A stretch of 64,000 nt of DNA from Flavobacteriales bacterium (GCA_020635725.1 JACJZF010000001.1:505947-569946); one strand, 5' to 3'; numbered from the stretch's first letter, positions 3,020-48,900 are shown. Program-made: numbers and translations. The notes: generated by a model from the sequence alone, not told the origin.

Positions 3020-3350
3020 CGCGCTCACTCCACGATTAGCCGCTGCGCCTCAAGGCGCCCATCAGTTCCCATGAGCTCGAGCAGGTACAAGCCGCTCTCC
3101 GGAATCCGCATCGTTTCAGTGGGGCCGCTCACGGAGCGCTCAAGAACGACCCGGCCCATGGCATCTCGCACCACCACGCGGCAGCGGCCGAGCCGTGGGT
3201 CGAGGGAGAGCCGCACTTCTCCATTGCTCGGGTTGGGATACGCGCTGAACGACTGATTCGCGGCAACCGATGGCAGGCCATTCGGTTCCTGCGCCAGCTT
3301 GATCACGAACGCGTTCCCCGGATCGGGGTGGTCGAAGGAGTCCGATCCAA
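3020..3350. repeat. Copy B of the ~330-bp near-identical segment
   Basis: Same as above. The two genes diverge 5' of this block. Confidence 0.8.
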
Positions 3351-4653
3351 CATGCAATGGATGACTGAAAGTGCTGGCCAAAACAACCACACCTTCATTC
3401 GAGGCATGCAACTCGCCTCCTACTTCAATCAGGCTGCCTCCGATCTGATAATCCTCTTCAAGCGCCCCGGCGCTATCGTAGAGTCGTACCCGAAGGTCAT
3501 CCCATCCGTAACAGGATATCATCCCTTGGGTAGAGGTGACGTTTCCGTAGAATTGGTCAAGTACGGCGTATGAGTCGCCATACTTGTCGATGTCTTGTGC
3601 ACGACTGTAGCCTTGGTCGGAATAATCATCGGTGGTCACCCAGATGCGCTCTCCGAAGTCGTCGAAGGCCACCAAGAATGAGACCGGGGACCCCGCTGGC
3701 CTTGATCCTACTGGAGAGAGACCATTCGAGAACCGCAGAACCGCATCCTCATAATTGCCCACGAGGACCACTCCGCCGCTAGGTGGACAGCACAATGCGG
3801 TGAAGAACGTCCCCTCGGCCCAAAGCGCGCTGTACACATATCGGACCCATTGAACGGTTCCGAAAGAATTGTACTTAGCGACAAAGGACACATTGAAAGC
3901 GCCACTTGCCAGGGGGACAACCAGGCCATCGAAGTTGGCAACACCAGGTGGGGCAAGGATCCCGACGACATACACATTCGAGAACGCGTCTACCTCTATG
4001 GCGTACCCTTGGTCAAAACCGCTCGGGGTGCCCGCTGTCCTTCGCCAGAGAAAGTCACCGGCAGAACTGTACTTGGCGATGAAAACATCCCCAGAGTCTT
4101 GACCTGTGATGAATATCTCGCCCAGTGAATTGGTTGTTATGCCCTTCCCTCCGAGTTTATCCCCTTGAACGGTTCGAGTCCAAACTGTATCGCACTGCTC
4201 ATTCAGCCTGATGAGTTCTATTCCCATACCTCCAGTGTCGCCAATCGTTTGTTCGAAGAGGAATAGTTCATCGGTGAAGCTCATGCCTACGATGCATCCA
4301 CCGACGCCATCTGGGGCTGTCGAAACGGTCATGTGATAGGTGCCCTCGGTCACCCGGTTCTCGGCGATTCTCCGGAACCAGATTGGCTCGAGTTCGGCAC
4401 TCAGCCGAATGTGATAGACCGCATCTGTTTCCGAAGTTCGGAGGGTGTCGAGCCCGTAGAAGACTGAATCTGGGAACACGCCCGTTATGTATTGGCCATC
4501 GTTGATGGCCTCAGCCATGCTGCGCGTCAGATAGATGGATGAAGATGTCTCATTGACCAACGGCGATGACTGACCGAGGGCAAGGGATTGTGCCGACGAG
4601 GAATGCTGGAGGAGAAGCCAGCATAGCAAGAATTGAAAGGCCGTCCGCGCCAT
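3025..4653 (-). CDS. Paralogous T9SS-sorted SBBP beta-propeller protein
   Basis: Signal peptide MARTAFQFLLCWLLLQHSSSAQS. The repeat architecture matches 1276-2904, and the last ~110 aa are nearly identical to that gene, including the T9SS C-terminal domain. Confidence 0.7.
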   Translation of the reverse strand: MARTAFQFLLCWLLLQHSSSAQSLALGQSSPLVNETSSSIYLTRSMAEAINDGQYITGVFPDSVFYGLDTLRTSETDAVYHIRLSAELEPIWFRRIAENRVTEGTYHMTVSTAPDGVGGCIVGMSFTDELFLFEQTIGDTGGMGIELIRLNEQCDTVWTRTVQGDKLGGKGITTNSLGEIFITGQDSGDVFIAKYSSAGDFLWRRTAGTPSGFDQGYAIEVDAFSNVYVVGILAPPGVANFDGLVVPLASGAFNVSFVAKYNSFGTVQWVRYVYSALWAEGTFFTALCCPPSGGVVLVGNYEDAVLRFSNGLSPVGSRPAGSPVSFLVAFDDFGERIWVTTDDYSDQGYSRAQDIDKYGDSYAVLDQFYGNVTSTQGMISCYGWDDLRVRLYDSAGALEEDYQIGGSLIEVGGELHASNEGVVVLASTFSHPLHVGSDSFDHPDPGNAFVIKLAQEPNGLPSVAANQSFSAYPNPSNGEVRLSLDPRLGRCRVVVRDAMGRVVLERSVSGPTETMRIPESGLYLLELMGTDGRLEAQRLIVE

Positions 4654-14285: not shown

Positions 14286-16238
14286 ATGCCTGAATCCGCA
14301 CTGATCGCTCCTTGGCAGTATTGCCCCAGCCTTACGCGCTACGAGCGCTGGCGCACGCGTGAGGTGCGCGTGGGCAGCGTGGGCATCGGCGGCACGAATC
14401 CGATCCGGGTGCAGAGCATGACCACCACGGATACCATGGACACAGCGGCCACCGTGGCGCAGAGCATCCGCATGATCGAGGCGGGCTGCGAGCTGGTGCG
14501 CATCACGGCACCGAGCAGGAAAGAGGCCGAGAACCTCCAGGTGATCAAAGAGCAGCTACGCGCCGCCGGCTTCGAGACCCCGCTCGTCGCCGACATCCAC
14601 TTCACGCCGAATGCCGCGGAGATCGCCGCGCGCATCGTGGAGAAGGTGCGCGTGAACCCTGGCAACTACGCGGATAAGAAGCGGTTCGATGTGCGCGAGT
14701 ACACCGACGCGGAATACGCCGATGAACTGGACCGCATCCGTGAGCGCTTCACCCCGCTGGTGCGCATCTGCAAGGAGCACGGCACCGCCATGCGCATCGG
14801 CACCAACCACGGCAGCCTCAGCGACCGCATCCTGAACCGCTACGGCGACACGCCCGAGGGCATGGTGGAGAGCGCCTTCGAGTTCCTGCGCATCTGCCGC
14901 GACGAGAACTACCACGAGATCGTGCTAAGCATGAAGGCCAGCAACGTGCAGGTGATGGTGCAGGCCTATCGCCTGCTCGTGCACCGCATGATGTCCGAAG
15001 GCTGGGACTACCCGCTGCACCTGGGCGTCACCGAAGCCGGCGATGGCGAGGACGGCCGTATCAAGAGTGCGGCGGGCATCGGGGCGCTGCTCGAAGACGG
15101 CCTGGGCGATACCGTGCGCGTGAGCTTGACCGAGGAGCCGGAAGCGGAGATCCCGGTTGCGCGGGGGTTGGTGGCCCGCTGCACAGCGCGTGCAGGGCAT
15201 GACGTGATTCCCGAAGTGGCGCGGGCACCGTGCAATCCGTTCTCGCATGAACGGCGGCTCGCGCGCGAGGTGCTGAACATCGGCGCGCGCCATGTGCCCG
15301 TGGTGATGGCCGACCTCAGCAATCGCAAGGCGATCACCCCTGCCGCGCTCTTCGCATGGGGCTATCGCTACAGCGTGCCGCTGGACAAGTGGAACATCAC
15401 CGATCAGGCCTGCGACTATGCCTTCATTGGCAAGAACACCATCGACTTCGAGATACCCGGCACCTTGGGGATCATCCAAGAGCACGCCACCTGGCTCGGC
15501 AACAATGGCAAAGAGCGGCACTACCCGTTCCTGAACAAGCGGGAATACCTCGGCGGCGCGCAACGGCACCCGCACTTCAACCTGGTGTACGCCACCTGGC
15601 CGGATCTGGATGATGCCTTCATCGCCGCGCTGAAGGCCGATTCCGCGGCCGTGCTGCTTATCGACACGTACAACGCGCACGGCATGGCCGAGCAGCGCCG
15701 GCTCTTCTTCGAACTGATCGCGCAGGAATGTCCGGTGCCGGTGATCATCGGCAGGGCCTATGGCGTTATCACCAACGATGCGCTGGTGCTCGACAGCAGC
15801 ACGGACATGGGTCCGCTGCTGATTGACGGCCTGGGCGATGGCATCTTCATCGCTGATGAACAAGGTGGCCGCGAGGACCTCGTGTGCCGCACGGCCTTCG
15901 GCATCCTGCAGGCCACGCGCACCCGCACCAGCAAGACCGAGTACATCAGCTGCCCCAGCTGCGGCCGCACGCTCTTCGACCTGCAGGAGACCACGGCCAA
16001 GATCCGCGCGCGCACGAGTCACCTGAAAGGAGTGAAGATCGGCATCATGGGATGCATTGTGAACGGCCCCGGCGAGATGGCCGACGCCGACTTCGGCTAC
16101 GTGGGCACCGGTCCGGGTGTGATCACACTGTACCGCGAGAAGGAAGTGGTGAAGCGCAATGTGCCCAGCGCGCAGGCCGTGGATGAGCTGATCGCACTGA
16201 TCAAGGAGCACGGGATGTGGGTGGAGGCGGAAGCCTGA
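14286..16238 (+). CDS. ispG: 4-hydroxy-3-methylbut-2-en-1-yl diphosphate synthase (long-form IspG/GcpE)
   Basis: RTREVRVGSVGIGGTNPIRVQSMTTTDTMD... and the C-terminal CPSCGRT Fe-S motif. Confidence 0.9.
   Translation: MPESALIAPWQYCPSLTRYERWRTREVRVGSVGIGGTNPIRVQSMTTTDTMDTAATVAQSIRMIEAGCELVRITAPSRKEAENLQVIKEQLRAAGFETPLVADIHFTPNAAEIAARIVEKVRVNPGNYADKKRFDVREYTDAEYADELDRIRERFTPLVRICKEHGTAMRIGTNHGSLSDRILNRYGDTPEGMVESAFEFLRICRDENYHEIVLSMKASNVQVMVQAYRLLVHRMMSEGWDYPLHLGVTEAGDGEDGRIKSAAGIGALLEDGLGDTVRVSLTEEPEAEIPVARGLVARCTARAGHDVIPEVARAPCNPFSHERRLAREVLNIGARHVPVVMADLSNRKAITPAALFAWGYRYSVPLDKWNITDQACDYAFIGKNTIDFEIPGTLGIIQEHATWLGNNGKERHYPFLNKREYLGGAQRHPHFNLVYATWPDLDDAFIAALKADSAAVLLIDTYNAHGMAEQRRLFFELIAQECPVPVIIGRAYGVITNDALVLDSSTDMGPLLIDGLGDGIFIADEQGGREDLVCRTAFGILQATRTRTSKTEYISCPSCGRTLFDLQETTAKIRARTSHLKGVKIGIMGCIVNGPGEMADADFGYVGTGPGVITLYREKEVVKRNVPSAQAVDELIALIKEHGMWVEAEA
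16202..16228. repeat. 27-bp direct repeat, left copy (last codons of ispG)
   Basis: caaggagcacgggatgtgggtggaggc is identical to 17500-17526. Confidence 0.85.
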
Positions 16239-16301
16239 GGCGCGCTGCGCAGAACAGCCGGCCATAACCGCTTGATGTTCAGACAACCAACATGGTTGGG
16301 T

Positions 16302-16336
16302 ACAATTTCGGAATCAGATTCCGAAATTGTACCTTT
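16302..16336. promoter_or_regulatory. Perfect 17-bp inverted repeat (GGTACAATTTCGGAATC A GATTCCGAAATTGTACC) 5 nt upstream of the ATPase start
   Basis: Exact palindrome read directly. It is AT-richer than the surroundings. The weak T-tract after it argues for an operator or recombination site rather than a terminator. Confidence 0.5.
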
Positions 16337-16340
16337 GGGC

Positions 16341-17498
16341 ATGGTACAGCGTGAAGCGGAGTCCGTGCTACTCCAGTTGGCAGCGGAGTTCAAGGCCGTG
16401 GCCGTGGTAGGACCGCGACAATCCGGCAAGACCACCTTGGTGCGTTCGGCCTTTCAGGACAAGCCGTACGTGAGCCTCGAAGATCCGGACGTACGCACCT
16501 TCGCGACCGAGGACACCCGAAGCTTTTTAGCACAGTACCCGACAGGAGCGGTGCTCGATGAAGCGCAACGGGTGCCAGCGCTCTTCTCCTATCTCCAGCG
16601 GATACTGGATGATAGTCGTGAGCGGGGGAAGTTCATCCTGACCGGCTCGAACCACTTTCTGATGCAGGACAACATCTCCCAAAGCCTGGCAGGCCGCATC
16701 GCGTACCTCGAACTGCTTCCATTCACCCTGAACGAACTACCGCCAGGCGCAGTTGATGACGCGGACGATTGGATGCTGAAGGGTGGATATCCTGCCATCC
16801 ATGAGGGAGGTATCGGTCGCACCAGTTGGTTCGCTAATTACATCCGCACCTATGTGGAGCGCGACGTCCGCCAGATCAAGAATATTTCGGACCTCCACGT
16901 ATTCGAGCGCTTCCTGCGGCTCTGCGCAGGCCGCACCGGTCAGCTGCTGAACATGAGCAACCTCGCACTTGAAACAGGCGTGGACAGCAAGACCATCGCG
17001 AGCTGGATCGGTATCCTGGAAAGCTGCTTCATCGTTCACCTGTTGCGTCCCTACCACGTCAACTTCAACAAGCGCGTGGTGAAGACCCCCAAGCTTCTGT
17101 TCCTCGATACAGGTCTGGCCTGTGCCCTGCTGGGTATCTCCGATCGGAAACAGCTCGCCCTGCATCCCATGCGCGGATCGCTCTTCGAGAACCTGGTCAC
17201 TTCGGAGCTGATCAAACGACTTGGACATCAAGGACGCCATGCCCAGAGCTGGTTCTGGCGCGATCAGAAAGGCCATGAGGTGGATCTGTTGATCGAAGAA
17301 GCAGGTCGTATCATCCCGATCGAGATCAAGTCCGGGCGCACCATCCAAGGGGAATTCTTCGGAGGCCTTGAATACTGGACCAAGCTCAGCGGCGGAACGG
17401 CTGGCGTAATGATCCATGGCGGCGATGCGAGCCAAGAGCGGTCGAATGGCATAAAGGTCCTTCCATGGAACAGGCTGTTCGAAGCGATTGACGCATGA
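16341..17498 (+). CDS. AAA+ ATPase (AAA_14 plus DUF4143 family)
   Basis: Walker A VVGPRQSGKTTL. Walker B/DEAQ LDEAQRV. The C-terminal region is DUF4143-like. The start is moved to the ATG at 16341. Confidence 0.8.
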   Translation: MVQREAESVLLQLAAEFKAVAVVGPRQSGKTTLVRSAFQDKPYVSLEDPDVRTFATEDTRSFLAQYPTGAVLDEAQRVPALFSYLQRILDDSRERGKFILTGSNHFLMQDNISQSLAGRIAYLELLPFTLNELPPGAVDDADDWMLKGGYPAIHEGGIGRTSWFANYIRTYVERDVRQIKNISDLHVFERFLRLCAGRTGQLLNMSNLALETGVDSKTIASWIGILESCFIVHLLRPYHVNFNKRVVKTPKLLFLDTGLACALLGISDRKQLALHPMRGSLFENLVTSELIKRLGHQGRHAQSWFWRDQKGHEVDLLIEEAGRIIPIEIKSGRTIQGEFFGGLEYWTKLSGGTAGVMIHGGDASQERSNGIKVLPWNRLFEAIDA

Positions 17499-17499
17499 G

Positions 17500-17526
17500 C
17501 AAGGAGCACGGGATGTGGGTGGAGGC
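17500..17526. repeat. 27-bp direct repeat, right copy (a vestigial ispG 3' end reading KEHGMWVEAGG*)
   Basis: Identical 27-mer starting 2 nt after the ATPase stop. It is in-frame with a stop after 3 further codons. Confidence 0.85.
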
Positions 17527-17545
17527 AGGGGGCTAACTTTCCGGC

Positions 17546-18160
17546 ATGATGCGCCCCTTGCTGCTGCTCGGCTTCACCCTCCTGTTCCTTCCCGCAGGGG
17601 CCCAGCGTACCCGGGCCCTGGAACTGCTGGCCTCTGCCATGGAGGGTTCATACACCAGTGCGGAGCAGGCCGCGACGGACACGAGCTACTTCGAGATCGA
17701 GCTGGAGATGGTGCGGATCTGGCCCAAGCGGCGCGATGGTGCCTGGTTCTACGTGGAGCAGGCCACGGCGGCCCGCAAGGACAAACCCTACCGCCAGCGC
17801 GTGTATCACCTCCAGCAGGTGGATGACAGCACCTTCACCAGCAGCATCCTCACCATCCGTGGCGGGGAGGCCTGGTACGGCGCCTATGGCGACCCGATGC
17901 GCTTGGCCACCCTGTCTCCCGATTCCCTTGATGCGCTGGAGGGCTGCACCATCACCCTGCGCCGTCAGCAGAGCATCTATACCGGCAGCACGCACGGCCG
18001 CGATTGCCCCAATAGCCGCGGCGGTGCGGCCTATGCCACGAGTGAAGTGAGCCTGCTCAGCGACCGGATGATCAGCTGGGACCGCGGCTTCGATGCCGAC
18101 GGCAAGCAGGTGTGGGGTGCGGAGAAGGGCGGTTACGTCTTCATCAAGCGCTCCCGCTGA
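17546..18160 (+). CDS. Secreted CpcT/CpeT-like (DUF1001) beta-barrel protein
   Basis: Signal peptide. SYFEIELEMVRIW...GAWFYVEQA...RQRVYHL resembles the non-cyanobacterial CpcT family. Confidence 0.45.
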   Translation: MMRPLLLLGFTLLFLPAGAQRTRALELLASAMEGSYTSAEQAATDTSYFEIELEMVRIWPKRRDGAWFYVEQATAARKDKPYRQRVYHLQQVDDSTFTSSILTIRGGEAWYGAYGDPMRLATLSPDSLDALEGCTITLRRQQSIYTGSTHGRDCPNSRGGAAYATSEVSLLSDRMISWDRGFDADGKQVWGAEKGGYVFIKRSR

Positions 18161-34962: not shown

Positions 34963-36876
34963 ATGCGCGTAGAGGAGGTCGTGGGCGATTTCGTCGCGCT
35001 CAAGCGGAAGGGCCCGCGCTACTTGGGGCTGTGTCCTTTCCACAACGAGAAGACACCCAGCTTCAACGTCAGTCCTAACCTCGGCATCTTCAAATGCTTC
35101 GGTTGCGGAAAGGCGGGCGACTCCATCACCTTCCTTCAGGAGCATGAGCACCTGAGCTATGTCGAGGCGATCCGGTGGCTCGCCAAGCGTTACCAGATCG
35201 AGCTTCCGGAGGAGGAGCAGACGCCGGAGCAGGCGCTGGAACAGAGCGAGCGCGAGAGCCTCGCTGTGGCGCAGCAATGGGCCATGAACTGGAGCATCGA
35301 GCAGCTCTGGAACACCGATGAGGGCAAGCGCATAGGCCTCTCGTACTTCCACGAGCGCGGCTTCACCGATGCCACCATCAAGGCCTTCCAACTGGGCTAT
35401 GTACCGGAGCAGGGCAATGCCTTCGCCATCGCCGCGCAGGCCAATGGCTTCAATCCGGAGATCCTGGAGAAGGCCGGCTGGATCAAGCGGCGCGAGGACG
35501 GCACGGCGTGGGACTTCTTCGCGGGCCGCGTCACCTTTCCGGTTTTCGGACTAAGCGGCCAACCTATCGCGTTCGGCGCGCGCACGCTCAAGAGCGACAA
35601 GAAACTCCCCAAGTACTTCAACTCGCCGGAGAGCGTCCTCTACGTCAAGAGCCGCTCGCTCTACGGCATCTACCACGCGAAGAAATCCATCGTCGAGCAG
35701 CAGCTCTGCTACCTCGTCGAGGGCTACACCGATGTGATCTCGTTGCATCAGGCGGGCATCACCAACGTGGTGGCCAGCAGCGGCACCAGCCTCACCGAGG
35801 ACCAGGTGCGGCTGATCAAGCGGTACGCGCCCACGGTGTGCATCCTCTACGATGGCGATGCGGCCGGCATGAAGGCCAGTTTGCGCGGCATCGACCTCGT
35901 CCTGAAGGAGGGCCTCAACGTCAAGGTAGTCACCTTCCCCGAGGGCGAGGACCCCGACAGCTTCGCCAAGAGCCACAGCAGCTCCGAGGTGAACGACCAC
36001 CTCACCCGCAGCGCGCAGGATTTCCTCGTCTTCAAGGCCGGCCTGCTCACCCAGGATGTCGGCGACGACCCGCTGAAGAAGGCGGCGGCCATCCACGACA
36101 TCGTCGAGAGCATCGCGCTCGTGCCCGATCAGGTGCTGCGCTCGCTCTACATCCAGCAATGCGCGCGCCTGCTCACCGTGAACGAGCAGGCCCTCATCAG
36201 CGAGATGAACAAAGTGCTGCGCCGGCAGTACCGCAAGCAAGTCGGCGGCGAACAGCCCGTTCCGGAGGAAGTCATCCCCGAGGCGATCGCGCCGCCGCAG
36301 CCCGTCATCGAGGACCTCGGCACCACGCCACAGGAAGCGAACATGCTGCGCATGCTCGTGGCCTACGGGCACAAGCGCGTCATGGTGCCGCTCGAGTCGG
36401 AGGATGGGGGCGAGGCCGAAGAAGAAGAGGCCAGCCTGGCCGAGCTCATGTTCGAGCTGCTCGCGCTGGATGACATCATGTTCGACGATCCGCTCTTCCG
36501 CGCCATCTACCTCGACTACCGCCACACCAGCAACATGGGCGAAGCGGTCGACACCGCGCGCTACGTGCAGCACGAGCAGGAGGAATGGCGGCAGCTCGCC
36601 ATCGGCATGCTCACCGAGAAGCACACGCTCAGCCCCAACTGGAAGGAACGCCACAAGATCCACGTGAAGCATGAGAGCGACCAGCTCTACGATGCCCTGC
36701 AGGAGGCCGTGGACATCCTCAAGGAACGCCGCGTCGACGTCATGGTGCGCGACCGCCAGGAGCAGCTCAAGACCGCCGATGACGAGTCGATGATGATCCT
36801 CCTCGCCGAGATCAAGGCCCTCAACGAGGTGAAGTGGAAGCTGGCGAAAAGGACGGGAAGGGTGGTGGTGGGCTGA
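34963..36876 (+). CDS. dnaG: DNA primase
   Basis: CHC2 zinc finger CPFHNEKTPSFNVSPNLGIFKCFGCGKAGD. TOPRIM region EGYTDVISLHQAG. Start set at the ATG at 34963. Confidence 0.85.
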   Translation: MRVEEVVGDFVALKRKGPRYLGLCPFHNEKTPSFNVSPNLGIFKCFGCGKAGDSITFLQEHEHLSYVEAIRWLAKRYQIELPEEEQTPEQALEQSERESLAVAQQWAMNWSIEQLWNTDEGKRIGLSYFHERGFTDATIKAFQLGYVPEQGNAFAIAAQANGFNPEILEKAGWIKRREDGTAWDFFAGRVTFPVFGLSGQPIAFGARTLKSDKKLPKYFNSPESVLYVKSRSLYGIYHAKKSIVEQQLCYLVEGYTDVISLHQAGITNVVASSGTSLTEDQVRLIKRYAPTVCILYDGDAAGMKASLRGIDLVLKEGLNVKVVTFPEGEDPDSFAKSHSSSEVNDHLTRSAQDFLVFKAGLLTQDVGDDPLKKAAAIHDIVESIALVPDQVLRSLYIQQCARLLTVNEQALISEMNKVLRRQYRKQVGGEQPVPEEVIPEAIAPPQPVIEDLGTTPQEANMLRMLVAYGHKRVMVPLESEDGGEAEEEEASLAELMFELLALDDIMFDDPLFRAIYLDYRHTSNMGEAVDTARYVQHEQEEWRQLAIGMLTEKHTLSPNWKERHKIHVKHESDQLYDALQEAVDILKERRVDVMVRDRQEQLKTADDESMMILLAEIKALNEVKWKLAKRTGRVVVG

Positions 36877-36891
36877 TCCTACCTTCGCCCC

Positions 36892-37824
36892 ATGGCCCAC
36901 GACCATCCCGGTCACGCCCACTCTGCGGGCCACGCCCAGCACGAGCATGCGCATGGCCAGGCCAGCGCCACCAGCGCCCGGGCCTTGAGCCTGGCCTTCT
37001 TCGTGAACCTCGCCTTCACGCTGGTGGAGGCCGTCGGTGGCTGGTGGACGGACAGCATCGCCGTGCTCACCGATGCCGTGCATGACGGGGGCGACTGCCT
37101 GGTGCTCGGCACGGCGTGGTACCTCCAGCGCGTGGCCATGAAGGGGCGCGATGCCGACTACAGTTATGGTTACGGACGGTATAGCATGCTGGGCGGCTGG
37201 CTCACCAGCGTGGTGCTCATCGTGGGCGCGGTCTTCATGCTGGTGGTGAGCGTGCCGCGCCTCTGGGCGCCCGAGCTGCCTGATGCGGAGGGCATGATCC
37301 TCATCGCTGTCTTCGGTTTGGTGATGAATGGCTTCGCCGCATGGCGCTTGCACGCGGGCGCCAGCCTGAACGAGCGCGGTGCCTATCTGCATCTGCTGGA
37401 GGATGTGCTGGGCTGGGCCGCGGTGCTCGTCGGCGGCATCGTCATCCGCTACACGGGCTGGGCCGCGGTGGATGCCCTGCTGAGCATCGGCATCAGCCTG
37501 TTCATCCTGTACAATGCGGTGGGCACCTGGCGACGCGGCACCGGCATCCTCATGCAGCAGACGCCGCATGGCATCGACATGCAGGCCGTGCGCGGAAGAC
37601 TCATGGCCATACCGCACGTGGTGGACCTGCATGATCAGCATACCTGGACCCTGGATGGCAGCTTCATGATCCACACGGTGCACATCGTGGTTGCTGATGT
37701 GGGCCACAAGGAAGCTTTGGCGATCAAGTCACGCGCGCGGCAGGAATTGGGCGCCCTCGGCATCCAGCACGCCACCATCGAACTGGAGTGGGAGGGCGAG
37801 CCCTGTGAGCTTCAGCACCACTGA
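36892..37824 (+). CDS. Cation diffusion facilitator transporter
   Basis: His-rich N-terminus. SLAFFVNLAFTLVEAVGGWWTDSIAVLTDAVHD. Confidence 0.8.
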   Translation: MAHDHPGHAHSAGHAQHEHAHGQASATSARALSLAFFVNLAFTLVEAVGGWWTDSIAVLTDAVHDGGDCLVLGTAWYLQRVAMKGRDADYSYGYGRYSMLGGWLTSVVLIVGAVFMLVVSVPRLWAPELPDAEGMILIAVFGLVMNGFAAWRLHAGASLNERGAYLHLLEDVLGWAAVLVGGIVIRYTGWAAVDALLSIGISLFILYNAVGTWRRGTGILMQQTPHGIDMQAVRGRLMAIPHVVDLHDQHTWTLDGSFMIHTVHIVVADVGHKEALAIKSRARQELGALGIQHATIELEWEGEPCELQHH

Positions 37825-43963: not shown

Positions 43964-44956
43964 ATGCACCGAGCCCTTTCCGCACTCCTGGTCCTGCCGG
44001 CCCTGCAGGCCTTGGCGCAGCCGCCGAACAGCGATTGCTCCACCGCGGCATTGCTCTGCGCCGAGCAGCCCATGGCTGGCAACAACACCGGCGCCACCGG
44101 TGCGCTGCCGGGGTTCTGCCCGAGCACCGATCTGCTGCTCTGGTACACCTTCTTCACCAACAGCGTGGGCGGAACGGTGGATGTGCAGCTCAACGGATTG
44201 GATTGCCCGGATGTGGTGGGCATGGGTGATCAGCTGAGCGTGGTGGTGCTCGCGGGCGATGGCAGCTGCACGCCGGCTTCCTTCACGGCAGTGTCGGTTT
44301 GCGCCCAGGACGATGCCGATTTCACCACGACCACCCAAGCGCTGCTGCCGAGCACGCAATACTGGGTGGTGGTGGCGGGAGCCACGAATGGCGGAGCGAC
44401 CATCGCGGCGCAATGCGACTTCGGGATCGTGGTGCAGGGCCCGGGCGCGGATGTGATCGGGGTCGATTTCGATGCCGGCCCCGATCTGGAGGTGGTGGCC
44501 GGATCATCGGTGCAGCTCGAGGTCATCGGAGGCACCAACTGGAACTGGACGCCTACCTCGGGGCTGAGCGGCAATGGCATTCCCAATCCCATCGCCCTGC
44601 CGCAGGAGACCACCCTGTACGAGGTGAGCACCCAGAGCAACGGCTGCACCTACACCGATACGGTGGTGGTGAACGTGCTGGAGCTGATCAATCCGCCGAA
44701 CACCTTCTCGCCCAATGGCGATGGCATCAACGATACCTGGGAGGTGCCCGGCATCGCCGACTACCCGGGCTCCGAAGTGATCATCTGGGACCGCTGGGGG
44801 CAGAAGGTCTTCAGCAGCAACGGCTACCGCGAGGCCTGGGACGGCACCAACAAGGGTCGCGACCTTTCCGAGGGCACGTATTACTACTTCATCCAGCTCA
44901 ACGAGATCGAGGGCCGCAGCGCGCCCTACCTGGGCTTCGTCTCCATCATCCGATGA
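43964..44956 (+). CDS. T9SS type-B (gliding-motility-associated) C-terminal-domain protein
   Basis: Signal peptide. C-terminal FSPNGDGINDTWEV...IWDRWGQKVF...GTYYYFIQ CTD-B. Confidence 0.75.
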   Translation: MHRALSALLVLPALQALAQPPNSDCSTAALLCAEQPMAGNNTGATGALPGFCPSTDLLLWYTFFTNSVGGTVDVQLNGLDCPDVVGMGDQLSVVVLAGDGSCTPASFTAVSVCAQDDADFTTTTQALLPSTQYWVVVAGATNGGATIAAQCDFGIVVQGPGADVIGVDFDAGPDLEVVAGSSVQLEVIGGTNWNWTPTSGLSGNGIPNPIALPQETTLYEVSTQSNGCTYTDTVVVNVLELINPPNTFSPNGDGINDTWEVPGIADYPGSEVIIWDRWGQKVFSSNGYREAWDGTNKGRDLSEGTYYYFIQLNEIEGRSAPYLGFVSIIR

Positions 44957-45891
44957 GGTACGCGCTGCTCCCCCTTCTGTGCATCGCCGCGCTCAGCGCC
45001 GGGGCGCAGCAGCTCTCGCAGTACACGCAATACGTGTTCAATGCCTTCAGCGTGAACCCGGCCGTGGCGGGTAGCAAGGATTGCCTGGACCTGCGCCTGG
45101 GCTACCGCAAGCAGTGGACGGGCTTCGAGGGCGCGCCGGTCACGGGCTGGGCCAGCTTGCATGGCACGCTGCGGACCAAAGGCAAGCCCTTCGTGGCCAA
45201 CAAGCACGGCATCGGCATGTTCGTGGAATCGGACAATGCGGGCAACTGGGGCTACACGCGCATGCTGCTGGCCTATGCCTACCACATGCAGATGTCCCGC
45301 GATTACTACCTCTCCTTCGGGTTCTTCGGCGGGGCGCAACAGGTGAAGTACGATGTGGGCGGGAGCACGGTGGTGAACTACAACGACCCGGCCCTCGACA
45401 GCCGCTCCAGCGTGGTGGTGATCCCGGAGATCACGCCCGGTGTCTGGGCGTACACCAAGGTGGCGTGGGGCGGCATCAGCATGCACCAGGCATTGGGCAA
45501 CAAGATCAACGGCATCGGCACCGATTCGCGCCTGGCGCGCCAATTCATGCTCACCGGCGGCTACAAGTACCGCATCGGGCGCAAGACCGCGCTGGTGCCG
45601 AGCGCCCTGATCAAGCTCTCCAAGGGCGCGCCCGCCGCCATGGACCTCAACGCCATGGTGGAATGGAACCGCCAGTTCGCCCTGGGCGCCGGTTACCGCA
45701 GCGGCGATGCCGTCACCTTCCTGCTCAAGGTGAGCTTCGCCAAGTACTTCCAGCTCGGTTACAGCTACGATGTGACAACCAGCAACATCCGGCTCGCCAG
45801 CAGCAACACGCACGAGGTGATCCTCGCCATCACCCCGTGCGGCAAGGAGGACATGAGCCGCCGGATGATCAATTGCCCCGCCTTCGATTAG
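44953..45891 (+). CDS. PorP/SprF-family T9SS outer-membrane protein
   Basis: QQLSQYTQYVFNAFSVNPAVAG N-terminal signature. ATGA coupling to the upstream CTD-B gene. Confidence 0.8.
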   Translation: MRYALLPLLCIAALSAGAQQLSQYTQYVFNAFSVNPAVAGSKDCLDLRLGYRKQWTGFEGAPVTGWASLHGTLRTKGKPFVANKHGIGMFVESDNAGNWGYTRMLLAYAYHMQMSRDYYLSFGFFGGAQQVKYDVGGSTVVNYNDPALDSRSSVVVIPEITPGVWAYTKVAWGGISMHQALGNKINGIGTDSRLARQFMLTGGYKYRIGRKTALVPSALIKLSKGAPAAMDLNAMVEWNRQFALGAGYRSGDAVTFLLKVSFAKYFQLGYSYDVTTSNIRLASSNTHEVILAITPCGKEDMSRRMINCPAFD

Positions 45892-45903: not shown

Positions 45904-48900
45904 ATGCGCACCAACGCCCTCTACGCCCTTACGATCGCCGCGCTGCTCTCGCACACCGCTTCCGCGCAGCATGCCGGAGGCCGTACCCTGCATTGGGTGG
46001 GCGGCAGCGGTCACTGGTCCGATGCGGAGCACTGGAGCCTGCAAGCGCAAGGCGCGGGTGGTGCGGCGGTACCGGGCCTGGCGGACAATGCGGTCATCGC
46101 TGCGGATGCGGAGCTGACACTGGTGATCGATGGAAGCGCGCGCTGCCATGACCTGCAGGTGGATGCGCGCGCGGGCTTCGTGCGCGTGCAAGGCGATGAA
46201 CGCGCGGAGCTGCGCGTGCTTGGCGATTGGCGCATGCAGGGCAGCATCCATTGGGACCTGCGAGGCCGTGTGCGTCTGATGGGCGACGCGGCAGGCTTGG
46301 TGGTGGATACGCGCGGCATCCCGCTCGCCGGGCAATTGACCTTCGATGGTGCGGGTTCGTGGACGCTGATGAGCGACCTGCTCCTCCGCGAGGGCGACAT
46401 CACCTTCAAGGAAGGGACCGTGCATTCCGCAGGAGGTCTGCTGACGGCGCGCACCTTGTGCAGCGAAGGCCGCGCACCGAAACAGCTGATGGCGGGCAGC
46501 GGCCTGGTGCAGCTGGCGCAAAGGCCAGAGGCTGGTGTGCTGGAGCGCACCGTGAACGCGCAGGACGCGATCCTTACCGTTGGTGGTGAGCCCACGGACT
46601 GGCCGCAGCGCCCGGTCATGGAACGGGATGCGCGTGATGTGAACGTGTGCGCCACCGGCGCGGGGCAGACACCCTTCACCGCAACCACCAGCGCCCTCAG
46701 CAACTACAGCGGATTCAATGTGCGCTGCCGCGGCGAATGCAACGCCACGGTGACCGTGAACGTGGCCGGTGGCATCGGCCCGTTCACCTATTCATGGCTA
46801 TTCGGAGGTCCGGCCACGCAGACCTGGACCACGGCCTGCGGTGGGCCACAGATTGTGGTGGTGACCGACCAAGGGCAGGGCGTTAGCTGCGGCGTGACGC
46901 TGAACGTGACCGAGCCGAGCCCGCTGGGCGTGATCTTCTTCGGCCAGGGAACGCCGCCCACCTGCGCCGATGTGTGCAACGGAACTCGCACGGCATTGGC
47001 GATCGGAGGCGTGACACCGCATACCTATAATTGGAACAATGGCGCGGGTTCGGGTTCCTCCTTCAACCAGCTGTGCGCCGGGGTGAATTCGCTGCGGATC
47101 ACCGATGCGAACAACTGCACCTTCGACACCACCTTCACCTTCAACCTGCAGCCCATCTCGCCCGGGCTCACCTTCACCAGCAACAGCTGCTTCGGCGATT
47201 GCAACGGCACGGCCACGGTGAATCCCACCGGTGGAACAGCGCCCATTTTGGCCACCTGGAGCCCGGCGCCCGGCGGCGGGCAGGGCACCTACAACGCCAC
47301 CGGCCTGTGCGCGGGCAATTACACGGTGCTGCTTTCCGACGCGAACGGCTGCGATACCACCGTCGCCTTCATCATCACGCAGCCGCCCCCCATCCTGCCC
47401 AACGCTCTTGTGACGAACGCGACCTGCTTCGGTGCGTGCGACGGAGCGGCTACTGTTACGCCTTCCGGCTCGCCGGGTCCCTTCGATTACAACTGGACAC
47501 CCTCGCCCGGCGGTGGCCAGGGCACAGGCTCGGCCACCGGCCTCTGCGCAGGCAATTACACGGTGCTGATCACCGACCAGGTGAGCGGTTGCGACACCTT
47601 GGTGCCGATCCTGATCGATGCGCCTCCATCCATCGATATCCAAGGAACCGTAACCGACGCCAGCTGTTCCAATACCTGCGACGGCGAGATCGGCATCGTG
47701 GTCAACGGTGCCGTGCCTCCGTTCACCATCACGTGGTCGCCGGCACCGCCTAGCGGCCAAGGGACCCAAGCCATCAGTGGCCTTTGTCCAGGTGATTGGA
47801 GCTGCACCTTCACCAATTCCAACGGCTGCGACACCACGGTGACCTTCACCGTGAACGCGCCGCCGCCCTTGGTCGCCTCGGTGCAGACCACCGATGTGAC
47901 CTGCGCGGGTGAGTGCGACGGCATGGCCACGTGCCCAGCGGTGACCGGCGGAACAGCACCCTACGCGTTCCTGTGGTCTCCTGCGCCCGGTTCCGGACAG
48001 GGAACCGATACTGCCCAGGACCTCTGCGCCGGCAACTACACCGTGCTCATCTACGATGCGAACGGGTGCGATACCACCATCGCCTTCGTGATCAACGAGC
48101 CGCCACCGTTGCAGGTGGTGCCGAGCCAGACCAACGTGACCTGCGGCGGCCAATGCGATGGCACGGCGAGCGTGCTGGTCTCCGGCGGGGTGCCGACCTA
48201 TACCTATCAATGGACCCCTGAGCCGGGTGGCGGGCAAGGCACGGCCAACGCCACCGGCCTCTGCGCGGGAGCGTATTCCGTGCTGATCACCGATGCGAAC
48301 GGATGCACCTTCACGCAGCCATTCATCATCCTGGATGCCGTGGCGCTGCAGATCTCGTTGCAGGTGCTGCCCGCGAGCTGTCCGGGTGATTGCGATGGCT
48401 CGGCTGGTGTGATCGTCACCGGAGGACAAGCGCCTTACAGCTACAATTGGCAACCGGCACCGGGTGGTGGCCAGGGCACGCCGAATGCCACCGGCCTCTG
48501 CGCGCAGGCCTATTCGCTCACCATCACCGATTTCCTCGGCTGCGACAGCACCATCGCCTTCACCGTGCCTGCGCCGCCACCGATCATGGTGTCGAGCACA
48601 TTGAATGAGCCCACGTGCAGCGGCGATTGCGATGGCACGATCGACCTGGTGGTCTCCGGTGGGAATGGCGCCTTCACCTACAGTTGGTCGCCGCCCCCCG
48701 GCAGCGGACAGGGAACCGCCAATGCGGGCGGGCTCTGCGCGGGCAGCTATCAAGTGGTGATCGCGAGCGGTGCGTGCGACACCACGCTCACCTTCCAGCT
48801 CACGGCCCCGCCGCCCATCGATGCGGCGCTGACCACTACCGACCCCAGTTGCGCGGGTGCGTGCGATGCCACGGCGAGCCTTTCCGTCTCGGGAGGAACG

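Follow-up and report, generated by a model that had tools for sequence, protein, structure and literature searches.

An ATPase gene cassette at the 3' end of ispG in a Flavobacteriales genome, followed by a displaced remnant of the original gene end

Introduction

Integrase-borne islands, ICEs and IMEs reside in the 3' ends of protein or tRNA genes between repeats of the target 3' end, which the element itself restores; the ICESt1/ICESt3 family of Streptococcus thermophilus, for instance, occupies the 3' end of fda and has short direct repeats, and CIMEs have the repeats without an integrase. At attTn7, the conserved 3' end of an essential gene, glmS, offers Tn7 a safe place to land, and the gene is left intact. 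Integron gene cassettes form promoter-proximal arrays of small, mostly single-gene units that have no recombinase of their own and are each followed by a repeat. At Rhs and type VI secretion system (T6SS) effector-immunity loci, displacement of the C-terminal (3') end is attributed to homology-facilitated illegitimate recombination (PMC5361080; Jackson et al. 2009 as cited there).

The gene of interest here belongs with the PDC-S01 family (= COG1373, AAA_14 + DUF4143). DUF4143 has been assigned to the PD-(D/E)xK nucleases (PMC3424549). PDC-S01 is classed as a defence candidate because of its location inside defence loci ('guilt-by-embedding') and is reported to rank fourth in frequency among predicted 'defence systems' (PMC12988326). 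The single representative put to the test failed to protect against T4, T5 or T7 (10.1101/2024.09.26.614923). The literature found on the PDC-S01/COG1373 family holds nothing on mobility or flanking repeats.

The locus described here lies in a 64-kb window (the whole stretch of DNA that was analysed), for which an initial annotation had proposed site-specific insertion of a single ATPase gene at ispG, with duplication of the ispG 3' end.

Results

Features of the locus

The positions given below are counted from the first base of the window.

14286-16238, plus strand: ispG (GcpE), 650 aa, intact, the target gene (Pfam GcpE, E=8e-130)
16198-16228, plus strand: direct repeat copy 1, 31 nt, within the working ispG, codons for LIKEHGMWVEA (exact 27-mer, 16202-16228)
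16229-16238, plus strand: new ispG tail GGAAGCCTGA (Glu-Ala-stop), supplied by the insert
16229-17499, plus strand: inserted segment, 1271 nt, comprising the new tail, spacer, predicted promoter/operator and ATPase gene
16299-16333, no strand assigned: perfect 17+1+17 palindrome GGTACAATTTCGGAATC-A-GATTCCGAAATTGTACC (arms 16299-16315 and 16317-16333), interpreted as an operator that overlaps the promoter of the ATPase gene
16330-16337, plus strand: TACCTTTG, match to the Bacteroidota -7 box TAnnTTTG, 3 nt 5' of the ATG, at a position conserved in homologues
16341-17498, plus strand: AAA_14 + DUF4143 ATPase, 385 aa (Pfam AAA_14, DUF4143; PADLOC PDC-S01)
17496-17526, plus strand: direct repeat copy 2, displaced remnant of the original ispG 3' end, starting inside the ATPase stop codon
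17527-17536, plus strand: original ispG tail AGGGGGCTAA (Gly-Gly-stop), now non-coding, collinear with the ispG end of the L004 empty site and with the L084 and L123 remnant tails
17546-18160, plus strand: cpeT/DUF1001, original downstream neighbour of ispG (Pfam CpeT, E=2e-47)

The target gene scores 480.8 bits against NCBIfam TIGR00612 (ispG_gcpE; curated cutoff 280.25), and its orthologues show 81-89% identity and the same synteny. As first annotated, the window contains two exact copies of the 27-mer CAAGGAGCACGGGATGTGGGTGGAGGC (16202-16228 and 17500-17526), and the second copy continues in the ispG frame to its own stop (...KEHGMWVEAGG-stop, TAA at 17534-17536). With one mismatch the direct repeat reaches 31 nt (16198-16228 versus 17496-17526), and the repeat period is 1298 nt. 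Two details of that description require correction: the 27-mer is not the last 27 nt of ispG, ten further bases (GGAAGCCTGA, 16229-16238) preceding the end of the gene, and the 27-mer is separated from the ATPase stop codon by one base (17499) instead of two, the TGA itself lying inside the 31-nt repeat. The ~1.3-kb insert indeed contains the ATPase as the sole gene found together with a perfect 17-bp inverted repeat, and its GC content is lower than that of its flanks (57.4% versus 64.8-65.7%), with a GC3 of 70% versus 85-86% for neighbouring genes. The ATPase gene is present in a single copy within the window.

The probability that the repeat is a chance match, a common genomic motif or an assembly artefact is negligible, and no support for such a reading was found. 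None of 100 shuffles yields a match to the 27-mer with 3 mismatches allowed; the 23-nt repeat core is confined to ispG ends or their remnants among the 145 loci fetched and has no occurrence on IMG/VR contigs, which disposes of the common motif that the initial annotation had envisaged. Two independent assemblies are identical in ispG-end and ATPase sequence (L001, covering both repeat copies, and L002, which stops inside copy 2), and the same junction is found in many samples. The shuffles, motif survey, independent assemblies and multiple samples refute all three explanations.

Empty sites and direction of insertion

It had been proposed that one copy of the repeat is original and the other was brought by an element, and that relatives might have ispG directly before the DUF1001 gene. 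Such empty sites are found in three close relatives (L004, L005 and L007), in which the insert is absent and cpeT directly follows ispG. The L004 empty-site end, ...GGAGGCCGAAGGTTAA followed by cpeT, matches copy 2 and not the copy-1 tail GGAAGCCTGA, and the L004 sequence GGAGGCCGAAGGTTAACTTCC...ATG aligns to copy 2 with its AGG-stop tail and not to copy 1 with its own. Because the empty site lines up with copy 2, copy 2 is the displaced original ispG end. The empty sites and this collinearity show that the 1271-nt segment is an insertion, that copy 2 is the ancestral ispG end and that the working ispG owes its last codons to the insert; this part of the earlier proposal is supported. The new tail and spacer also accompany the closest relative of the ATPase, L136, in a different setting.

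The ATPase gene and its predicted promoter

In the window protein, the Pfam matches to AAA_14 (residues 17-133, E=1e-27) and to DUF4143 (residues 173-332, E=3e-52) each exceed the gathering score. The match to the PADLOC PDC-S01 model is very strong (E=5e-108), and the domain content is that of the family. Its Walker A (GPRQSGKTT), Walker B (LDEAQ) and PD-(D/E)xK (E313, D315, E328-I-K330) motifs are all intact; among 31 homologues G24-T32, D73-E74, E313, E328 and K330 are invariant and D315 is conserved in at least 90%, and dN/dS for the ATPase is ~0.1. The top Foldseek matches to its AlphaFold2 model (pLDDT 88) are the archaeal AAA+ proteins 2fna and 2qen, and Orc1/Cdc6. The modelled architecture is that of an Orc1/Cdc6-like AAA+ protein with a winged helix and a PD-(D/E)xK nuclease. 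The protein is thus a candidate of PDC-S01 type, a widespread, unvalidated single-gene defence candidate, and a relative, L135, belongs to a defence island that also includes toxin-antitoxin (TA) genes, a gene for type IIG restriction-modification and an Abi-like gene. Its predicted function would be ATP-dependent DNA sensing and cleavage in defence, with autoregulation at the palindrome.

The palindrome has a DNA-fold z of -8.6, and its core, TACAATTT.GGAAT...ATTCC.AAATTGTA, is kept 5' of homologues in ispG, pgk, P-type ATPase, 4HBT and PAP2 contexts; it is best described as a conserved predicted promoter/operator of the ATPase gene. The consensus of the Bacteroidota -7 promoter box is TAnnTTTG, and TACCTTTG at 16330-16337 is probably the -7 box of the ATPase promoter; with only 3 nt between this box and the ATG, the ATPase mRNA would be leaderless or nearly so. 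A role of the palindrome as an att or recombination site was considered and rejected, as it is found 5' of the gene in every genomic context.

Variable duplications at ispG and at other genes

Comparison of independent lineages shows that the duplication at ispG varies in length, from 0 nt (L116) through ~40 nt (the window's lineage) to 336 nt (L006). The 336-nt ispG remnant of L006 and L086 is 91% identical and has lost the CxxC motif through indels. In L116-L121 the duplication is absent, and the cassette stands in place of 69 nt of intergenic DNA that the empty relative L008 has. The same architecture appears at pgk (L134 and L142), where pgk with a new tail is followed by a spacer, the palindrome, the ATPase gene and a ~93-112-nt pgk 3'-end remnant carrying the old tail; duplications of a P-type ATPase gene 3' end measure 175-195 nt. 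Of 27 independent ATPase contexts, 6 have strong repeats on their flanks, versus 0 of 162 size-matched control genes (Fisher 5e-6). The DUF4143 family, to one member of which a mobility signature had been attached, does have a recurring mobility-like scar, found at pgk and elsewhere with the same architecture; of the two hallmarks to be looked for at other DUF4143 genes, the palindrome is present in every context and strong flanking repeats are present in those six.

The scar also occurs beside other cassettes. The initial annotation had held that the same repeat around unrelated content would refute its reading, and this was encountered in part: the order in L136 is TA cassette (DUF433/DUF5615), ispG fragment, ATPase, ispG fragment. 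An ispG-end fragment thus also follows the TA cassette, and the scar is therefore a property of the locus or of the insertion process and not of the ATPase alone. In L061 an ispG remnant follows a 4-kb insert without an ATPase gene, and in L113 and L135 three to four copies of the P-type ATPase 3' end lie between KilA-N, HicAB, VapBC and PDC-S01 cassettes. Two remnants beside different cassettes in L113 have the identical internal boundary CCCTGCTGCGCGG, and the ispG fragment after the TA cassette of L136 begins within ~10 nt of the boundary used by ATPase cassettes. Such recurring array boundaries are expected of a site-specific enzyme, and pure homologous recombination needs extra steps to produce them.

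Age and inheritance of the junction

The junction between the ATPase stop codon and the ispG remnant, TGA/GC(GCTGATC)AAGGAGCACGGGATGTGGGTGGAGGC, is common to the window, L122, L136, L083, L084 and L123-L130, and at least eight related metagenomic lineages have this same junction of ATPase stop and ispG; at the start of copy 2, TGA/GC(GCTGATC)AAGGAGCACGGG..., the window, L122 and L136 are without the 7 nt GCTGATC. Within the shared-junction set the ATPase diverges by up to 16% of amino acids, with dS of 0.75-0.79. These alignments show the junction to be old and shared among relatives; a fresh target duplication or recent event was rejected, the junction being common to lineages with ATPase dS of ~0.75. 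In some pairs the cassette is younger than its hosts, dS being 0.19 for the ATPase versus 0.49 for ispG (L084/L085), 0.38 versus 0.59 (L083/L084), and 0.52 for the ATPase versus 0.74 for pgk and 0.81 for holB (L134/L142). The remnants of the window and L123 match at 27 of 27 positions, with 60% identity at ATPase four-fold sites and 68% in the adjacent tail; by this comparison the remnant is too conserved for neutral debris, and some constraint or repeated re-creation is acting. Within the window's lineage, the ispG tree and the ATPase tree conflict only weakly (bootstrap 61-80%), and vertical descent with repeated loss in that lineage would be compatible with this weak tree evidence.

Comparison with known classes of element

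Scans of the cassette, of 25 neighbouring window genes (within ~9 kb on the upstream side and 28 kb on the downstream side) and of the surroundings of related arrays revealed no tyrosine or serine recombinase of the kind sought by the initial annotation. No integrase-type island bounded by the repeat was found within 6 kb at 80 ispG loci, and no helper element with an integrase for the ispG site was seen at these loci or on IMG/VR contigs. Independent events differ in duplication length and no recombinase is present locally, and the site-specific insertion first proposed therefore shows no sign of a fixed-core recombinase.

The locus resembles islands, ICEs, IMEs and CIMEs in its direct repeats of the target 3' end, the gene end restored by the element, the empty sites in relatives and the tandem accretion, and resembles CIMEs also in having repeats without an integrase. 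It differs from them in that the only gene of this 1.3-kb element is the ATPase and not a tyrosine or serine recombinase, no integrase was found nearby and no helper element is known, and in that repeat length is inconstant and no att core or crossover point is common to independent ispG insertions. The conserved 3' end of an essential gene that stays intact is shared with Tn7, whereas the transposase genes, terminal repeats, fixed 5-bp duplication and insertion 3' of the stop codon of Tn7 are not found here; for transposons and IS elements in general, no inverted repeats at the insert ends and no transposase domain were found, and the duplication is long and variable instead of short and fixed. 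A free-standing homing endonuclease gene was also rejected, since a target duplication is present and homing expects none. The arrays of small units without a recombinase, each followed by a repeat, recall integron cassettes, but the repeat here is a housekeeping coding end without an attC-like hairpin (remnant fold z = +0.7), no IntI or attI was found, and each cassette has its own promoter.

The locus has the pattern of 3'-end displacement. As in Rhs/T6SS displacement, the homology anchor would be a conserved gene body, a new 3' end and cargo are brought in, and the old 3' end, here collinear with the empty sites and seen also at pgk, is moved downstream as an orphan, repeated events giving arrays of orphan ends (compare L136 and L113). 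Unlike those systems, the target is an essential metabolic gene (ispG, or pgk elsewhere) and not a polymorphic toxin, the last few codons alone change and leave protein function unaltered, and the cargo is an unrelated defence-type gene and not a toxin domain with its immunity gene.

Discussion

The reading preferred here, on which confidence and doubt are about evenly balanced, is that a non-autonomous single-gene cassette entered an insertion hotspot at the ispG 3' end, either by homology-anchored displacement of that end or by Campbell-type insertion. Recombination would be anchored in the conserved last part of ispG; the incoming DNA would consist of an ispG-like 3' end, new tail, spacer and ATPase gene, and would recombine with the resident ispG either as a circle by a single crossover (Campbell type) or as a linear fragment joined through homology at one end and illegitimately at the other. 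The resident ispG would retain a complete reading frame and gain the new tail, while its own 3' end would be shifted downstream of the cassette, with the 27-31-nt repeat as its residue, and cassette and remnant could spread between related genomes via recombination in the repeats. The enzymology would presumably be that of host homologous recombination and not of a dedicated integrase; a recombinase acting in trans is possible. Homology of 27-40 nt lies at the lower limit for RecA-dependent recombination, and so short a homology counts against homology-anchored insertion at ispG, as do the recurring array boundaries, the high conservation of the remnant and the weak tree evidence. Neither a circular intermediate nor an empty site in the same population was seen.

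Somewhat unlikely, given the evidence described above, is a cis- or trans-mobilisable element (CIME-like or an integron-type cassette) at a true att site, with a recombinase from a helper island, ICE or phage inserting cassettes serially and the repeats representing attL and attR. The flanking repeats, restored gene end and empty sites agree with it, as do tandem arrays in which repeats separate different cassettes and the internal boundaries are nearly identical (L136, L113), a remnant conserved far above neutral expectation, like a functional site, and a 23-nt core unique to ispG ends. However, no recombinase was detected in the cassettes, arrays and flanks examined, and one enzyme is unlikely to act on unrelated sequences with duplications of 0, ~40 and 336 nt at ispG, ~93-112 nt at pgk and 175-195 nt at the P-type ATPase gene; moreover, a core-type att site has no use for a 336-nt untranslated ispG-like arm, and the lack of an attC-like hairpin in the remnant, the absence of the core from IMG/VR contigs and the 0 of 80 ispG loci with a repeat-bounded integrase-type island within 6 kb all weigh against it. 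It is highly improbable that the ATPase-nuclease mobilises its own gene as a new single-gene selfish element, its PD-(D/E)xK nuclease and AAA+ motor cutting gene ends to give long, variable target duplications. About three quarters of contexts, including the ispG-linked L116, are without a flanking repeat, L061 has an ispG remnant without the gene, terminal inverted repeats were not found and the left end is unconserved beyond the ~70-nt promoter, the window holds a single copy, and the family is classed as a defence candidate by its embedding in defence loci (PMC12988326). On the other side stand the right edge of the unit, which falls 0-20 nt past the ATPase stop at each of three independent junctions (ispG codons ~636 and 535, and pgk), the enrichment of flanking repeats in the family, the presence of an ATPase gene also in the arrays with repeat-flanked TA cassettes (L136, L113), and the predicted combination of DNA-binding winged helix, nuclease and ATPase in one protein.

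Local events only, namely an ancient intergenic insertion, tandem duplication with partial deletion, vertical descent and precise loss in some lineages, with no horizontal movement, form a quite improbable history, although the junction is inherited, the ispG and ATPase trees are roughly congruent in the window's lineage, and the L003 ispG tail resembles the L083 copy-1 tail, suggesting a former occupant now lost. Tandem duplication would give identical tails, whereas those of the two copies differ, and it is copy 2, together with the DNA that follows it, that matches the empty sites. From pair to pair, ATPase dS relative to host-gene dS differs by a factor of about seven; in L134 versus L142 the cassette is more conserved than pgk and holB; the ispG-linked ATPases are not monophyletic, with L113, L134 and L131 in other contexts; and the GC3 of the cassette is 16 points below that of its neighbours.

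Beyond homology-anchored insertion at ispG, the small defence and toxin-antitoxin cassettes of these Flavobacteriales may, although this is unlikely, constitute an undescribed system in which captured housekeeping 3' ends (ispG, pgk, P-type ATPase) serve as portable recombination sites, cassettes excising as circles, re-inserting into the same gene in other genomes and stacking into arrays, with either host RecA alone as the driving force or the PDC-S01 ATPase-nuclease as the recombination factor. Were such a system to exist, PDC-S01 would gain a role in gene mobility.

Results

Layout and polarity of the insertion

The 27-mer CAAGGAGCACGGGATGTGGGTGGAGGC, which the initial annotation had reported at the end of ispG and again behind an ATPase gene, is indeed present twice in the window, at 16202-16228 (copy 1, within the working ispG) and at 17500-17526 (copy 2, hereafter the remnant); shuffled sequences gave zero matches to it even with three mismatches tolerated, and chance or a common motif was rejected as its source. 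With one mismatch the repeat extends to 31 nt (16198-16228 and 17496-17526). Two points differ from the earlier wording: ispG continues for 10 nt past the 27-mer (GGAAGCCTGA), and the ATPase stop codon lies within the 31-nt repeat.

Features of the ispG-cpeT locus (positions in the window)
14286-16238: ispG, flanking gene upstream of the cassette
16299-16333: perfect palindrome (17+1+17), fold z = -8.6
16341-17498: AAA_14+DUF4143 protein (the ATPase), 385 aa
17546-18160: cpeT/DUF1001, flanking gene downstream

The segment between the repeats has a GC content of 57.4% and a GC3 of 70%, compared with about 65% and 86% for ispG and cpeT, and the 64-kb window holds no further copy of the ATPase. 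The ispG end and ATPase sequence are identical in independent assemblies (L001, L002); with these and many samples concordant, an assembly artefact was rejected.

A scan of species genomes yielded 80 ispG loci, of which the closest are Flavobacteriales MAGs with the same synteny as the window (EamA, ispG, cpeT, HTH_34). In three comparison loci, L004 (ispG 88% identical), L005 and L007, cpeT directly follows ispG, representing the empty site. The end of L004 ispG (...GTGGGTGGAGGCCGAAGGTTAACTTCCCCGCACCATG) aligns with copy 2 of the window and the DNA downstream of it (...GTGGGTGGAGGCAGGGGGCTAACTTTCCGGCATG); copy 1 with the tail behind it (GGAAGCCTGA GGCGCGCTG...) gives no such alignment. The former end of ispG is thus found downstream of the cassette today, and the last three codons of the working ispG were brought by the insert. 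Of the site-specific insertion with a reconstituted ispG end that had been proposed, the empty sites therefore uphold an insertion that restored the gene end, and the integrase-type attachment site is not upheld. An empty site in the source population would read ispG ...GGAGGC joined straight to AGGGGGCTAACTTTCC, and a circular or tandem form would read the ATPase 3' end, one repeat copy, then GGAAGCCTGAGGCGCG.

Age of the junction and conservation of the remnant

Metagenome and assembly look-ups showed ispG and the ATPase arranged in this way in many samples (L083, L084, L085, L122, L123-L130, L136), and wherever the contig extends beyond the ATPase stop (all but L085) the remnant stands directly 3' of it, as TGA followed by GCGCTGATCAAGGAGCACGGGATGTGGGTGGAGGC. 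Seven nucleotides of this shared junction (GCTGATC) are absent from the window, L122 and L136. The ATPases of the loci with this arrangement are 84-94% identical to that of the window, whose dS relative to L083, L084 and L085 is 0.75-0.79 with dN/dS of about 0.1. A shared junction flanking ATPases so diverged indicates that the joint was made once, long ago, and then inherited; the 27-nt repeat of the window is an old inherited joint and no fresh target duplication, and as such is no evidence of a recently active element. On strict co-inheritance of ATPase and ispG, the dS ratios are inconsistent between pairs, and the conflict between ATPase and ispG trees is weakly supported, deciding the question neither way.

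The displaced ispG fragment (window 17500-17526; L083, L123-L130) is conserved far above the adjoining non-coding DNA and the silent sites of the ATPase. Between the window and L123 it is identical at 27/27 positions, neutral sites being about 60% identical, and synonymous changes in the working ispG are not mirrored in the remnants, which stay ancestral in sequence. Gene conversion keeping the copies alike was rejected, as synonymous variants present in a locus's copy 1 do not reappear in its remnant. Conservation as a cpeT promoter is a weak explanation (the TAACTT(T/C)C box matches poorly and is lost in L083), and an attC-like structure was rejected. In L083 (3191-3250) the stop codon of the remnant is lost (TAA to CAA), so that an ATG inside the remnant shares the reading frame of cpeT and could give CpeT 12 extra residues.

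Other joints at ispG

The joint takes other forms in other ispG-linked lineages. In L006 and L086 (ATPase 74% identical) a 336-nt remnant beginning at ispG codon 535 follows the ATPase stop, 91% identical to copy 1 and with indels that destroy the Cys motif. In L116-L121 (ATPase 69% identical) the cassette stands directly after the ispG stop with zero duplication; the ispG tail is that of L008, an empty relative, and the insert takes the place of 69 nt of intergenic DNA. A recombinase with a fixed core does not fit duplicated lengths that are 0, about 40 or 336 nt at a single gene. In lineages that bear a duplication its right edge falls in the last few ispG codons, which is simply where any two ispG alleles cease to align.

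The ispG-cpeT gap also holds other cargo. In L003 (5015-5607) a DUF433 + DUF5615 (PIN-like) toxin-antitoxin (TA) pair fills it without a remnant. L003 and L083, the latter with the ATPase, have ispG genes 96% identical, and the tail of L003 ispG resembles the copy-1 tail of L083, a likeness that suggests a former occupant at this site. A TA pair in one genome and an ATPase in a close relative mark the ispG-cpeT site as a hotspot for different small cassettes. In L061 (7926-11962), a distant Bacteroidota genome, a piece from inside the ispG 3' region recurs as a 74-nt copy (88% identical) 4 kb downstream of ispG, behind three unrelated genes, which encode a secreted protein with a CHRD domain and the two-component pair LytS/LytTR.

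Recurrence of the scar at other genes

L134 and L142 have the cassette behind pgk, in the order pgk with a new tail, spacer, palindrome and ATPase, followed about 8-20 nt after the ATPase stop by a pgk 3'-end remnant of about 93-112 nt that includes the old tail.

Repeats of the pgk 3' end (positions in each locus)
L134: 2664-2777 and 4139-4256, about 112 nt; remnant with a 16-nt insertion
L142: 2787-2879 and 4178-4270, about 93 nt

The pgk joint is common to both loci, and between them dS rises from 0.52 for the ATPase to 0.74 for pgk and 0.81 for holB. Elsewhere the repeats consist of intergenic hairpin sequence (L143, L089) or of a 68-nt merR-like gene end (L102). When flanks of 500 nt (600 nt at three loci) were compared by blastn-short at E<=1e-3, strong flanking repeats were found in 6/27 independent ATPase contexts and in 0/162 size-matched control genes (Fisher 5e-6); since these controls are mostly core genes, the enrichment shows that the scar marks inserted DNA and does not establish any specificity for the ATPase protein. 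With pgk as a further site, the suggestion that the DUF4143 family carries a recurring mobility-like scar is borne out.

Arrays of gene ends were also observed. L136 (1-1875) holds the closest ATPase relative (94%), and its downstream gene is one other than cpeT; the order is a DUF433/DUF5615 TA cassette, an ispG fragment with window-type tail and spacer, the ATPase and a second ispG fragment. In L113 (120-3886, equal to L135 6120-9886) 3-4 direct copies of the 3' end of a P-type cation ATPase gene (175-195 nt, 86-91% identical) separate KilA-N, HicAB, PIN-toxin and PDC-S01 cassettes, two of the copies having one internal boundary in common. No full-length P-type ATPase gene adjoins this array, which belongs to a defence island that also contains a type IIG restriction-modification gene and a DUF3644/EC042_2821 gene.

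The palindrome and the ATPase

Homologues situated in ispG, pgk, P-type ATPase, 4HBT and PAP2 contexts conserve the palindrome core TACAATTT.GGAAT...ATTCC.AAATTGTA in front of the gene, with TAccTTTG and then the start codon after it. The TAccTTTG box is read here by the Bacteroidota -7 promoter consensus, and the palindrome would then be a putative promoter with overlapping operator. A recombination site was rejected, as in every context the palindrome is placed 8-42 nt before the start codon and shares bases with the TAnnTTTG box; this position supports a regulatory reading. As to an RNA gene or tRNA-like target, the sole Rfam match was sub-threshold and to the palindrome.

The ATPase protein matches the PADLOC PDC-S01 models (E=5e-108), and DUF4143 is among the families that PMC3424549 assigns to the PD-(D/E)xK superfamily. 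In 31 homologues the Walker A and Walker B residues, E313, E328 and K330 are invariant and D315 nearly so; the AlphaFold2 model (pLDDT 88) is similar to SSO1545 and PAB2304, both archaeal AAA+ proteins, and to Orc1/Cdc6, and a sequence search of solved structures gave zero informative matches. PDC-S01 is a candidate single-gene defence system found via its embedding in defence loci, and is reported to rank fourth in frequency among the predicted defences of prokaryotes (PMC12988326); one representative gave zero protection against T4, T5 or T7 (10.1101/2024.09.26.614923). The cargo family is thus very common, with a candidate (unvalidated) role in defence. On predicted viral contigs of IMG/VR (L137-L141), ATPase relatives 48-50% identical are preceded by an AT-rich palindrome and lack flanking repeats, and the ispG-end core has zero occurrences on IMG/VR phage or provirus contigs.

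Other features of the window

Two 300-nt stretches (1271-1570 and 3020-3319) are 97% identical. They make up the last ~100 codons, at the 3' ends, of two paralogous neighbours on the minus strand (1276-2955 and 3025-4653), which are much more diverged elsewhere; this looks like gene conversion of a common C-terminal domain. Very large genes of tandem repeats (period about 237-240 nt) occupy 45904-55275 and 56700-64000, downstream of a PorP/SprF gene (44299-45891); with Cys-rich units and one ORF of 3123 aa, they probably encode type IX secretion surface proteins. A 718-aa ORF on the minus strand (35551-37707), with GC3 of 0.66 compared with 0.8-0.9 in its neighbours and zero Pfam match, may be another acquired gene.

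Discussion

The locus is classed as a 3'-end displacement or integrase-less cassette with PDC-S01 as cargo. It shares with the 3'-end displacement of Rhs and T6SS effector loci (PMC5361080) the layout of gene body, new tail, cargo and an old 3' end collinear with the empty site. Homology-anchored displacement or circle insertion is the best explanation, with about even confidence. A cassette between two copies of a conserved gene end could be released, by recombination of the copies, as a circle with one copy, and the circle could then enter the corresponding gene of a second genome by a single crossover. Repeated in this way, the process would preserve the element-side joint and the travelling tail, the downstream tail remaining native. 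The shared joints, the arrangement in L136 and the pairs in which the cassette is younger than its host all agree with it. The many ~1.3-kb contigs of homologues are unusable as a sign of circles, that collection's contigs being generally short.

Weighing against homology-anchored insertion, and keeping alive a recombinase acting in trans, are remnant boundaries that are nearly identical in arrays, remnants strongly conserved without tracking copy-1 variants, and a repeat that is short for RecA. Such a recombinase is nonetheless an unlikely agent. None was found in the surroundings examined of L136, L113/L135, L061 and L003, the proteins of unassigned function beside the L135 array have no recombinase domains, and the scanned neighbours in the window have housekeeping domains or zero Pfam match, with no recombinase; together with duplications as unequal as those at ispG, this speaks against the integrase-type insertion at first supposed. 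A purely local rearrangement is less likely still and distinctly improbable. Self-mobilisation by the ATPase-nuclease we consider very improbable.

Many defence genes occupy chromosomal hotspots without mobility genes, and their route of arrival is poorly understood. Here the scar can be read in three parts, a new gene tail, the cargo and the displaced old gene end, and for a single, very common candidate defence family it turns up again at two distinct essential genes as well as in arrays. If homology-anchored insertion via a captured gene end is true, it would be a general, testable, integrase-free route between related genomes that single defence genes could use, with a simple sequence signature by which such insertions could be found.
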